A stretch of DNA of 29,317 nucleotides from a virus. Its lineage: Duplodnaviria; Heunggongvirae; Uroviricota; Caudoviricetes. Location of the stretch: IMG/VR virus record IMGVR_UViG_2872164251_000007, positions 1-29,317 of that record; one strand, given 5' to 3'. The notes beneath the pieces are model-generated. The model did not search any database, was not told the origin of the DNA, and was given only the letters and a program-made list of their open reading frames with translations. Both the position numbers and the translations under genes were made by a program. The stretch's first letter is position 1; the number at the start of each line of letters is the position of its first letter. Positions 25,088 through 27,681 of this stretch are shown here, piece after piece.

Positions 25088-25925
25088 GGTCTGTTACCCC
25101 CTGAAGCCTGGCGGGATCGCACTGTCCGGCAACGAGACGGTGTTAACCTGTCGGAGCAACGTCTCAGGCCGAACACCTTTCGGCGCGAACAGACCCTGGT
25201 ATTCATTGGCGATGCTGTGTCGAATCACCTGCTCAGGTGTAAAACCCTGCTGACGGAATTTTTCCAGTTCCCGTATCGCCCCGTTAGCGCCCAGCTCCGT
25301 TCGAATCGGTTTTCGCAATGCCTGCCTGAACTGGACCCACTCATGCCAGAGTGTATCTGGCAACCAGTCGGGCAGATCAACTGACAACGGGTCAAATTTT
25401 TTCTGGCGAACAGCCCCACCGATAACCAGAATTCCCTGCTCGGTGTGCCTTGCGATATCACTGCGCCGCAAGACACATATCCCGGTTTCAACAGCACCGA
25501 TTTTGAGCAGTGATTTCTGTCGCGGAGAATTTCGGTCAAGCTCGATCCCACACCGGACACCGTTCCTGTCAGTCACGACGATATCAATCCGCCCTCCGCA
25601 ACCGTCACCACGCTCTGGCACCGGATACTCACGACAGACATCCAGGCCAGCAGCCTGCAACGCAACCACCGCAGAATTACAAAATTCCGCTGCAGTACCG
25701 CCAGATAATCTCCCCTCAAGCACTCCAGCCACAAAATCCCGAAACTCCCTTCCGGAAGGGAAGGGTTTGGGATGGGTTAGATCTGTTTTTAGATCTTTAT
25801 CTGTATCTTTATTAGTTGCCTTTGTGTTGGCATCTAGACTGGCCCCCTGAATCTCCAGACAACCAGTATCACTTATTTAAGTGATAGCCTTAATACTAGT
25901 TTTTAGACTAGTCATTGGAGAACAG

Positions 25926-26291
25926 ATGATTGATGTCTTAGGGCCGGAGAAACGCAGACGGCGTACCACACAGGAAAAGATCGCAATTGTTCAGCAGAGC
26001 TTTGAACCGGGGATGACGGTCTCCCTCGTTGCCCGGCAACATGGTGTAGCAGCCAGCCAGTTATTTCTCTGGCGTAAGCAATACCAGGAAGGAAGTCTTA
26101 CTGCTGTGGCCGCCGGAGAACAGGTTGTTCCTGCCTCTGAACTTGCTGCCGCCATGAAGCAGATTAAAGAACTCCAGCGCCTGCTCGGCAAGAAAACGAT
26201 GGAAAATGAACTCCTCAAAGAAGCCGTTGAATATGGACGGGCAAAAAAGTGGATAGCGCACGCGCCCTTATTGCCCGGGGATGGGGAGTAA
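25926..26291 (+). CDS. insC: IS2 InsC (orfA)
   Basis: [41 protein letters not shown]..., start at the internal Met of the track ORF. Confidence 0.85.
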
Positions 26292-27154
26292 GCTTAGTCA
26301 GCCGTTGTCTCCGGGGGTCGCGTGCGCAGTTGCACGTCATTCTCAGACGAACCGATGACTGGATGGATGGCCGCCGCAGTCGTCACACTGATGATACGGA
26401 TGTGCTTCTCCGTATACACCATGTTATCGGAGAGCTGCCCACGTATGGTTATCGTCGGGTATGGGCGCTGCTTCGCAGACAGGCAGAACTTGATGGTATG
26501 CCTGCGATCAATGCCAAACGTGTTTACCGGATCATGCGCCAGAATGCGCTGTTGCTTGAGCGAAAACCTGCTGTACCGCCATCGAAACGGGCACATACAG
26601 GCAGAGTGGCCGTGAAAGAAAGCAATCAGCGATGGTGCTCTGACGGGTTCGAGTTCTGCTGTGATAACGGAGAGAGACTGCGTGTCACGTTCGCGCTGGA
26701 CTGCTGTGATCGTGAGGCACTGCACTGGGCGGTGACTACCGGCGGCTTCAACAGTGAAACAGTACAGGACGTCATGCTGGGAGCGGTGGAACGCCGCTTC
26801 GGCAACGATCTTCCGTCGTCTCCAGTGGAGTGGCTGACGGATAATGGTTCATGCTACCGGGCTAATGAAACACGCCAGTTCGCCCGGATGTTGGGACTTG
26901 AACCGAAGAACACGGCGGTGCGGAGTCCGGAGAGTAACGGAATAGCAGAGAGCTTCGTGAAAACGATAAAGCGTGACTACATCAGTATCATGCCCAAACC
27001 AGACGGGTTAACGGCAGCAAAGAACCTTGCAGAGGCGTTCGAGCATTATAACGAATGGCATCCGCATAGTGCGCTGGGTTATCGCTCGCCACGGGAATAT
27101 CTGCGGCAGCGGGCTTGTAATGGGTTAAGTGATAACAGATGTCTGGAAATATAG
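26249..27154 (+). CDS. insD: IS2 InsD (orfB, DDE transposase domain)
   Basis: 301-aa ORF overlapping insC, matching IS2 InsD. Confidence 0.85.
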
Positions 27155-27681
27155 GGGCAAATCCAGCATCATGTTCGAACACCACTCCAACATCTGTTTG
27201 AACACCTGTTAAATTTCTCTCTTGTTTTGTTTGAACATCTGCTTCCTTTCTGCTTCTTCTGGCCTGAACAGATGCTTTTCCTGCGGCTGATTTTTTGGTT
27301 AATTTTTCTCTGACAGATGCCAGATCTTCCTCAATCCGAAGATGCATCCATTCGTCGCCGTTATCACAAAAAAACTCCCGCAAGGATGGTTCAACATCAA
27401 CCCATCGCTCGTTAGTCAGACGGGCAATTTTTGCCAACCTGTTTTTGGGTATTGGCTTTCCTGTTTGCCAGTAATTGAACATCAGCAACAAATACGCGCC
27501 GTGCTCCTCTGCTGACAAATGCATGGTGTCAGCCAGATAATCAGCTATGTACAGTTGCATGTATGGTAATGCGGCCATAATTGCCCCGTATGATGCTACC
27601 CGGTTGCTTAGAATAAGTGAGGTAGCCTGAGTTTAACGGACGCTCCTTCCTGAAATAGAATGGCATCAGAAGGAGCTAATA

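Follow-up and report, generated by a model that had tools for sequence, protein, structure and literature searches.

An IS2 insertion in a YdaU-family gene next to a DnaC-like helicase loader, and the three modules of the reconstructed protein

In the stretch of DNA analysed here (the window, 29,317 nucleotides), a copy of IS2 separates two pieces of coding sequence directly upstream of a gene for a DnaC-like helicase loader. This raises the question which gene the element has interrupted, whether that gene was intact when IS2 arrived, and what its product would have done. We regard it as very probable that the window represents a Shigella flexneri-type chromosome carrying a decayed Rac-like lambdoid prophage, in which IS2 disrupts the likely initiator gene, of the ydaU type, and probably also the origin.

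Anatomy of the insertion and reconstruction of the gene

The interrupted gene lies on the minus strand, with its ATG at 27578 and the end of its stop codon at 25094. Its present state is described by the following features:

25094..25834, minus strand: 3' part of the gene, codons 137-382 plus stop, with a C-terminal ORF of 212 aa (from excision, PHROG, PDB search and structure model)
25830..25834: left target duplication GCATC, 5 bp (sequence, computed, empty-site comparison)
25835..27165, plus strand: IS2, 1331 bp, both ORFs full length (sequence, IS2 TnpA/TnpB family models), with orfA at 25926-26291 and orfB at 26249-27154
27166..27170: right target duplication GCATC, 5 bp (same evidence as for the left copy)
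26988..27578, minus strand: present ORF of 196 aa, consisting of YdaU residues 1-137, one Ala and 58 residues from the right end of IS2
27171..27578, minus strand: 5' part of the YdaU-family gene, codons 1-136 (PF07120, alignment with K-12-type YdaU)

The limits of IS2 were read directly from the sequence. The element starts with TAGACTGG at 25835 and ends with AAATCCA at 27165, and its termini (TAGACTGGCCCC... and ...GGGGCAAATCCA) are imperfect terminal inverted repeats with partial inverted symmetry. An A6G -1 frameshift site (AAAAAAG, 26243-26249) is located where orfA and orfB overlap, and both transposase proteins score above the cutoffs of their NCBIfam models (TnpA: NF006928, 275.8 bits against 229; TnpB: NF006918, 724.4 bits against 597). 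The transposase genes run antisense to ydaU, and the whole element is 99.4-99.6% identical to IS2 copies of E. coli. IS2 entered after codon 137, in DNA coding for a disordered linker, and the ydaU::IS2 junction can be recognised by the 30-mer CTTTGTGTTGGCATCTAGACTGGCCCCCTG.

An earlier note on this DNA had described GCATC on both sides of IS2, and the pentamer is indeed present directly outside both ends, a flank match with a chance expectation of about 1/1024. Deletion of 25835-27170, which comprises IS2 and one GCATC, yields 1149 nt (382 codons plus stop) with zero internal stops and joins 136 to 246 codons in frame, as the same note had proposed; excision of IS2 alone, or of IS2 with both GCATC copies, breaks the frame.

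An allele without IS2 is present in two of 5426 complete E. coli genomes, and the reconstructed gene matches it as one piece over positions 1-1149 (99.7% and 99.6% nucleotide identity). In both genomes, the ORF is open over 382 codons, with 3-4 amino-acid differences from the reconstruction. At the empty site, both alleles have a single GATGC, one copy of the target, without extra bases. In E. coli L001, the flanks of IS2 in the window (23890-25834 and 27166-27617) correspond to 8353-6409 and 6413-5962, with an overlap of exactly the 5-bp target. A 392-aa YdaU-family protein of Salmonella (P0001) is 68% identical to the reconstructed protein over 100% of its length, and phage GenBank records held partial relatives only, the full-length allele being absent from them. 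Both halves thus align to single uninterrupted homologues, and the proposed reconstruction stands.

Transposition of IS3-family elements involves a staggered cut of the target, whose repair gives a direct repeat. At this locus, one IS2 transposed into the ydaU-type gene; the staggered cut, 5 bp wide, would have been made at GATGC, and its repair would have left the GCATC duplication. That the GCATC match is a coincidence and IS2 arrived by recombination between IS2 copies might be suspected in a window crowded with IS elements, where the nearby IS600 is clearly a rearrangement junction without target duplication, but this is virtually impossible and refuted by the empty-site comparison, as the flanks are contiguous in the uninterrupted alleles, overlap by exactly the 5 duplicated bases and regain the frame only upon excision of IS2 plus one copy.

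Prophage context, distribution and age of the insertion

The interrupted gene is bordered on its 5' side by a further element:

27618..28881, plus strand: IS600, 1264 bp, 39 bp upstream of the ydaU ATG (family model, flank comparison)

Intact loci have the gene order racR-like / ydaS / ydaT / ydaU / dnaC-like. Here, ydaS/ydaT/racR and the promoter region are replaced by IS600, which parts the ydaU gene from its operon and is abutted by a truncated LysR-type gene. The bases flanking IS600 are AAG and GGA, so a 3-bp duplication is absent. The remaining prophage order is [IS600]-ydaU::IS2-ydaV(dnaC-like)-DUF977-...-DUF551-hok-IS1-DUF1367-ybcO-Q-like. The description of the event as a single insertion is right when the ORF alone is considered, but not for the module as a whole, where IS600 is also present without target duplication.

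For the gene product, the insertion would mean a reduction to the N-terminal DNA-binding module followed by 58 junk residues. Any upstream transcription would no longer reach the C-terminal two thirds or the loader gene behind them, and we infer that their expression is lost. A consensus scan found no minus-strand promoter reading from IS600 or IS2 into either gene fragment, a result that is limited to consensus sequences and does not establish absence.

In S. flexneri genomes, the 196-aa product carries the annotation 'bacteriophage protein' or 'DUF1376 domain-containing protein'. We found the exact read-through product in at least 24 contigs, and two variants of it in 25 and 68 further contigs, all of them named Shigella flexneri. 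Among the carriers are a strain of serotype 3a and one that is related to serotype 1c isolates. Between copies of the locus, 15 positions vary within IS2 and 5 in the flanking parts of ydaU, one of the latter being a 1-bp deletion seen in a single strain. Beyond the adjacent IS600, the sequence context is of two different kinds. The insertion had been called recent in view of the precise duplication and the preserved frame. This view is not supported, since the same insertion is fixed in many S. flexneri genomes of different serotypes and its copies have since diverged; an intact duplication and an open frame over 1.1 kb say little about age. Among the 5426 complete E. coli genomes, none has the same interrupted locus at 80% coverage or more, and the insertion is Shigella-specific within the available data.

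Compared with other IS2 (IS3 family) pseudogenes in S. flexneri, there is no difference in kind: the 1331-bp length, orfA/orfB, the A6G site and the 5-bp duplication are all shared, as is the setting in an IS-dense chromosome with IS600, IS1, IS66-family and IS91-family elements. The event is an ordinary, already sequenced case of IS-mediated pseudogenisation, known from dozens of public S. flexneri genomes in which it is annotated as fragments. As such, it is a routine finding, one more IS-mediated pseudogene among the decaying prophages of an IS-saturated species.

Domain make-up of the reconstructed protein

The reconstructed protein is a three-module YdaU-family protein. It consists of i) an N-terminal DUF1376 domain (PF07120; aa 5-87, encoded at 27318-27566; 87.8 bits against a Pfam cutoff of 30.1, covering the full profile 1-86), after which the 5' part continues with a long helix and enters the linker, ii) a PD-(D/E)xK-like domain (aa ~156-277, 25412-25777), which follows the remaining disordered linker in the 3' part, and iii) a domain resembling the DnaT C-terminal domain (aa 278-382, 25097-25411). 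PHROG families 6451 and 3992 ('primosomal protein') match the protein, PHROG 678 ('replication initiation O-like') matches aa 279-356 (E 2.4e-22) and PHROG 1347 (function not assigned) matches aa 164-276. No match to PF04492 (Phage_rep_O) was found in the protein at E<=0.01, and no NCBIfam model matches the YdaU-type protein. In a phmmer search against the PDB, aa 290-382 matched the DnaT C-terminal domain (2ru8, E 1.6e-4; 9zbt, E 6.4e-4), limited to DnaT residues 92-179 and including the shared ending NTVSxPDSxIPPGFRG.

In a structure model built on a 149-sequence alignment (pLDDT 82.6), the N-domain is a winged helix, the middle domain has a PD-(D/E)xK fold and the C-terminal domain is helical. 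A single-sequence AlphaFold model (pLDDT 50.9) was usable for the C-terminal domain only and was dropped. Winged helices of the same type as the predicted N-domain are seen in ORC/Cdc6, in RepA-type initiators and in MarR regulators. When PDB sequences were searched with a profile of alignment A2, only weak MarR/SlyA winged-helix matches resulted, because the N-modules in this alignment are heterogeneous. Residues 125-157 are disordered in the model (pLDDT below 50), the middle domain folds confidently (pLDDT 83-97) and a three-helix domain is predicted at the C-terminus (pLDDT 95-98).

The middle domain, for which there is no Pfam model, has the alpha-beta-beta-beta-alpha-beta core of the PD-(D/E)xK nuclease superfamily. 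Its conserved signature consists of RGDG, D220, E234-x-D236 and R241-x-K243-S244; across 26 aligned sequences including the reconstruction, E234, K243, S244 and K247 are invariant and D220 and D236 occur in 25. The acidic residues are arranged as E-x-D, not as E-x-K. At least 23 divergent representatives have the domain at the same place inside the protein. The N-domain ahead of it may be Phage_rep_O, DUF1376 or another wHTH domain, and the present C-terminal domain may or may not follow; among the Phage_rep_O relatives, P0122 has the middle and C-terminal domains and P0154 the middle domain only. The occurrence of one middle domain behind such varied N-domains suggests that the N-modules are interchangeable origin-binding heads. 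An intein or intron-like nature of the middle domain was considered and dropped, as it is translated in frame and no splicing motifs were found, and we treat it as an optional domain.

A close and well-known relative is YdaU of the K-12 Rac prophage (285 aa, DUF1376), whose gene occupies the same place in the order ydaT-ydaU-ydaV and whose gene model starts 17 codons further upstream. The modules at aa 1-155 and aa 278-382 are closely similar to it (92% over aligned positions), but the ~120-aa domain between linker and C-terminal domain is lacking in K-12 YdaU, and the two genes are not collinear over their whole length (63% DNA coverage, in two pieces). As these ~120 residues have no counterpart in the 285-aa proteins, the reconstructed protein is a domain-insertion variant.

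The mosaic make-up also bears on whether IS2 hit a living gene. The gene matches K-12-type ydaU in its N part and another gene class, at ~97% identity, in its middle and C parts, which suggests recombinational mosaicism, and the full allele is rare (2 of 5426 genomes). PGAP moreover divides each of the two uninterrupted E. coli alleles into a pair of partial pseudogenes, one labelled 'missing C-terminus' and the other 'missing N-terminus', and splits a 376-aa class-B gene likewise. The gene could thus have been dead or chimeric before IS2 arrived, the 382-aa 'allele' being two YdaU fragments fused around foreign DNA. We consider this improbable, since all 382 codons are open in both E. coli genomes, the Salmonella protein with 68% identity has the same three-module architecture and is annotated as an intact YdaU family protein, and the middle domain not only folds with confidence in the model but also keeps its invariant residues and its position across distant homologues. 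The most likely reason for the PGAP split is a family model without the optional domain. Both the 382-aa and the 376-aa YdaU-type genes are open and modular, and the RefSeq label of two pseudogenes is an annotation artefact worth fixing. For the uncharacterised YdaU family, our data provide a domain model in which a winged-helix head is combined with a DnaT-like tail, a PD-(D/E)xK domain being optional between them.

Predicted replication function and a candidate in-gene origin

Besides the domains of the protein itself, the neighbouring gene and the DNA on both sides of IS2 point to a role in replication:

24341..25087, minus strand: intact gene for a DnaC-like helicase loader of the YdaV type; its product (248 aa) does not differ from that of E. 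coli L001
27172..27239: cluster of three iteron-like repeats with the motif TGTTYGAACA(C/T)C, at 27172, 27195 and 27228 (motif search; putative origin role)
25773..25829: AT-rich tract, 72% A+T compared with a gene mean of 50%, with two GATC sites (AT profile)

The loader gene starts 7 bp past the stop of the reconstructed ORF, in agreement with the placement given in the earlier note, and its product is assigned by NCBIfam (NF009043, 506.9 bits against a cutoff of 389) and by PHROG 50 ('DnaC-like helicase loader'). The name 'replication initiator' that had been given to the interrupted gene is well supported by homology, gene order and domain architecture, but holds at the level of prediction. 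A paper from 2023 lists ydaUVW as genes without determined functions and describes Rac as replication-defective (PMC11014345); our search of the literature on YdaU, DUF1376 and oriJ brought up neither a study of YdaU function nor a map of oriJ at the sequence level.

The uninterrupted 382-aa protein would most likely have served as origin-binding initiator and helicase-recruiting adaptor of the prophage. Its winged-helix DUF1376 domain would bind the repeats inside its own gene, and its DnaT-C-terminal-like domain would bind ssDNA and/or pass host DnaB to the adjacent DnaC-like loader. This agrees with the C-terminal domain of DnaT itself, which forms ssDNA filaments and is considered to recruit DnaB/DnaC (PMC13377028). 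Lambda O offers a close parallel, as its gene occupies the same place (past cro/cII-like genes and before the helicase-loader gene), its protein has the same layout of N-terminal DNA-binding head, flexible linker and C-terminal recruiting domain, and ori-lambda likewise has repeats and an AT-rich tract within the gene, in linker-coding DNA. In contrast to lambda, the N-domain here is DUF1376 instead of Phage_rep_O, the loader is DnaC-like instead of lambda P, and the four 19-bp iterons of ori-lambda are replaced by three iteron-like repeats of 10-12 bp.

The motif has no exact match in the window other than these three repeats, which stop 1 bp short of the duplicated target; the AT-rich tract, which codes for the disordered linker, lies directly across IS2 from them. 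Class-B genes, which have another N-domain, carry different repeats (GTTAC-type) at the same place. From three short repeats and the analogy with ori-lambda, we infer that the repeats may act as origin iterons, and the insertion between repeats and AT tract probably splits an in-gene origin as well. Against the iteron reading, the repeats also encode repeated VQT / VFE peptides. This gives a testable candidate for a Rac-type origin within the gene.

The DnaT likeness allows a different reading, namely that YdaU is a DnaT-like primosome adaptor or restart mimic that loads DnaB at recombination or D-loop intermediates, without a specific in-gene origin. Among solved structures, the DnaT C-terminal domain (2RU8 / 4OU7 / 9ZBT) is the only homologue, and aa 290-382 align to DnaT residues 92-179 with the identical terminal motif PD(S)xIPPGFRG. 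PHROG calls the family 'primosomal protein', phage Rac-SA53 annotates ydaU as 'primosomal protein I', and recET lies next door in Rac. We judge this reading rather unlikely, though it fares best among the alternatives. In contrast to DnaT, with its N-terminal oligomerisation domain and its role in PriA/PriB restart, the prophage-encoded YdaU lacks this N-terminal domain and has in its place DUF1376, a winged helix of the ORC/Cdc6, RepA-type initiator and MarR kind, for which relatives substitute the origin-binding domain of lambda O. The gene also holds the O position ahead of a P/DnaC-like loader, and its linker-coding DNA holds module-specific repeats and an AT tract.

Returning to the initiator reading, we tentatively suggest that some lambdoid replication proteins of the YdaU/O type have, between origin-binding head and DnaT-like tail, a PD-(D/E)xK-like domain that is so far uncatalogued, and that IS2 may sit at the iteron/AT-tract junction of a functional in-gene origin. 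Should the middle domain be an active nuclease or nickase, such initiators would join origin recognition to DNA cleavage. The cleavage could have a selfish, homing-like or exclusion role or allow a start primed by a nick, and annotation pipelines would systematically mislabel intact genes of this kind as pseudogene pairs.

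Anatomy of the IS2 insertion

The gene that the earlier note had read as split by IS2 is of the ydaU type, and the limits of the element could be read directly from the sequence:

25835-27165, IS2, 1331 bp, first bases TAGACTGGCCCC (25835), last bases GGGGCAAATCCA (27165)
25830-25834 and 27166-27170, GCATC target duplication adjoining both IS2 ends
27578 (ATG) to 25094 (end of stop codon), minus strand, interrupted ydaU-type gene

As had been proposed, computational removal of IS2 together with one GCATC (25835-27170) keeps the frame and yields an ORF of 1149 nt (382 codons); the frame is lost upon excision of IS2 alone or of IS2 with both copies. 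A single-piece match of the reconstructed gene (nt 1-1149) is present in two of 5426 complete E. coli genomes, FDAARGOS_944 (L001, 99.7% nucleotide identity) and VL40 (L002, 99.6%), where the ORF is open and differs from the reconstruction by 3-4 amino acids. Both halves align to these single homologues and to a Salmonella “YdaU family protein” of 392 aa (P0001; 68% identity, 100% of length aligned). The flanks of the window align to L001 8353-6409 and 6413-5962 and overlap there by exactly the five duplicated bases, which is the signature of simple transposition. A junction formed by recombination between IS elements and a chance match of the GCATC flanks (~1/1024) are both excluded by this exact overlap at the empty site.

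Both IS2 ORFs are full length (orfA 275.8 bits against IS2 TnpA, cutoff 229; orfB 724.4 bits against TnpB, cutoff 597), the A6G frameshift site lies at 26243-26249, and E. coli IS2 copies match the element at 99.4-99.6% identity. Insertion took place between codons 137 and 138, inside the disordered linker of the predicted model, and the present-day ORF encodes a 196-aa read-through product of 137 native residues, one Ala and 58 IS2-encoded residues. It is a classic case of IS2 entering a prophage remnant in Shigella, and since it is present in public genomes, neither the kind of event nor this instance is new.

Compared with L001, the reconstructed gene shows four nucleotide differences (window 27537, 27182, 25355 and 25293; nt 42, 397, 888 and 950), three of them non-synonymous (V133M, D296E, L317Q). 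This fits relaxed constraint after inactivation, but four differences are far too few for a test.

Age of the insertion and further elements

At least 24 NCBI contigs, mostly chromosomes of 4.4-4.5 Mb, encode exactly this fusion product. In the protein collection it occurs in 25 contigs and a same-length variant in 68, besides many “YdaU family protein, partial” entries truncated at contig ends, and all of these entries are named Shigella flexneri. Carriers include AUSMDU00022017 of serotype 3a (PMC9455713) and AUSMDU00008355, which is the nearest chromosome to the studied serotype 1c (7a) isolates (PMC9376355), whose loci match the window at 99.3-99.8% over ~11 kb. Nine copies of the locus differ at 15 positions within IS2 and at 5 in the ydaU fragments, and in one strain a single base pair is deleted. 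Past the adjacent IS600 the context is of two kinds, with a LysR-type gene in some copies and a phage holin region in others. The shared product, the diverged copies and the two contexts indicate that the insertion is older than the divergence of these S. flexneri lineages. An intact duplication and frame do not demonstrate recency, and the description of the event as recent is not supported, given its spread across S. flexneri, including serotype 3a, and this variation.

Further elements of the window are:

27618-28881, IS600, 1264 bp, 39 bp upstream of the ydaU ATG, flanks AAG / GGA
19917-20684, IS1, 768 bp, 9-bp target duplication TACTAACAG, flanked in the same prophage remnant by the hok/gef region on one side and the DUF1367 gene on the other
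3928-5109 and 15734-16346, two more IS600 copies, one without the first 82 bp, the other the last 613 bp only
1206-3845, IS66-family element
16755-17987, IS91-family element

The term “single insertion” is appropriate for the ORF, but IS2 is not the sole lesion, since IS600 replaced ydaT, ydaS, racR and the promoter region. The flanks of this IS600 (AAG vs GGA) form no 3-bp duplication, so that it marks a rearrangement junction. The K-12/PGAP gene model starts 17 codons upstream (MLFVLILS...), in which case IS600 also takes the first four codons; 27578 is the better-supported ATG, given the 268-aa gene models and a DUF1376 profile that starts at residue 5. On the far side of IS600 lies a truncated LysR-type gene (28835-29317), where other S. 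flexneri genomes have the phage holin region. For IS1, the empty site is present in L001. The window holds IS66-, IS91- and IS3-family elements, the latter including others besides IS2, and three IS600 copies; insertion-sequence DNA makes up about half of it.

Modules and likely role of the reconstructed protein

DUF1376 (aa 5-87) is the only Pfam match in the reconstructed protein, which is a YdaU-family member with an extra domain:

25412-25777, minus strand, optional PD-(D/E)xK-like domain, ~120 aa (aa ~156-277), PHROG 1347 “unknown function”

PHROGs assigns the N-terminal part to the “primosomal protein” family phrog_6451 (E 2.4e-115), aa 164-276 to phrog_1347 and aa 279-356 to phrog_678, common to “replication initiation O-like” proteins. 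A search of PDB sequences found homology between aa 290-382 and the DnaT C-terminal domain (2ru8, E 1.6e-4; 9zbt), with an identical terminal motif PDSxIPPGFRG. In the preprimosome this domain of DnaT assembles into filaments on ssDNA, and a role in recruiting DnaB/DnaC is proposed for it (PMC13377028). K-12-type YdaU (285 aa) has the same N and C modules (92% over aligned positions) but no counterpart of aa ~156-277; proteins of a common “phage protein” class (376-380 aa) have the same middle and C modules (~97%) behind a different N-module. In an AlphaFold model from a 149-sequence alignment (mean pLDDT 82.6), the predicted N-domain is helical/winged-helix and leads into a long helix; the linker (aa 125-157) is disordered, with pLDDT below 50, the middle domain is alpha/beta (83-97) and the C-terminal domain consists of three helices (95-98).

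The most likely function is that of an initiator or helicase-recruiting adaptor, and we consider this probable from indirect but coherent evidence. In uninterrupted loci, ydaU follows a racR-like repressor gene, ydaS (cro-like HTH) and ydaT and precedes a DnaC-like ATPase gene, the position of lambda O; in the window this DnaC-like gene (24341-25087) is intact and its protein identical to that of L001. A search of 1.84 billion representative proteins found this middle domain, alone or together with the C-terminal domain, behind varied N-modules, among them Phage_rep_O with both downstream modules (P0122) or the middle domain only (P0154), DUF1376 (P0138) and another wHTH (P0172). These arrangements show DUF1376 to be interchangeable with the lambda-O origin-binding head. 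The earlier reading as replication initiator gains from gene order, these heads and the RefSeq designation “phage replication initiator YdaU family protein”, but stays indirect. Against it, our literature search found no experimental work on YdaU, ydaUVW are listed as genes without determined functions and Rac is called replication-defective (PMC11014345). Rac is stated to have an active origin, oriJ (PMC3945230). The protein probably works like lambda O, with head, linker, recruiting tail and a gene placed ahead of the loader gene; it is neither a Phage_rep_O member nor, despite the common tail, a DnaT orthologue.

In an alignment of the reconstruction with 25 divergent homologues, R211, G212, G214, E234, K243, S244 and K247 of the middle domain are invariant (26/26), and D213, D220, D236 and R241 are found in 25/26. 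No Pfam model covers this domain. Its internal position is the same behind each kind of head (Phage_rep_O, DUF1376 or other wHTH), and a subset of lambdoid initiators thus carries a conserved, nuclease-like domain that is uncatalogued, which is of modest interest. RefSeq/PGAP annotates uninterrupted genes bearing it as two “incomplete, partial” pseudogenes despite continuous ORFs:

L001 5950-7149 (FDAARGOS_944), 382 aa
L002 5950-7149 (VL40), 382 aa
L011 2074-3204 (M19), 376 aa, with the other N-module

This looks like a systematic artefact, likewise of modest interest, that arises because the family model is without the optional domain.

A candidate origin within the gene

Two features border the IS2 target:

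27172, 27195 and 27228 (27172-27239), three TGTTYGAACA(C/T)C repeats, gene 5' side, just before the target
25773-25829, AT-rich tract, 72% A+T (gene mean 50%), two GATC sites, immediately past the target on the other side of IS2

The motif of the three repeats, of which the third is a perfect palindrome, has no other exact match in the 29-kb window (~0.1 exact matches estimated for the whole window), and no part of the gene is richer in A+T than the tract. Ori-lambda sits within gene O, in linker-coding DNA, and has a similar layout. This likeness suggests that IS2 also separates putative iterons from a putative unwinding element. The candidate in-gene origin is of modest interest. The 376-aa gene of M19, with its different N-module, carries different, GTTAC-based repeats at the equivalent place (L011 nt ~2390-2490).
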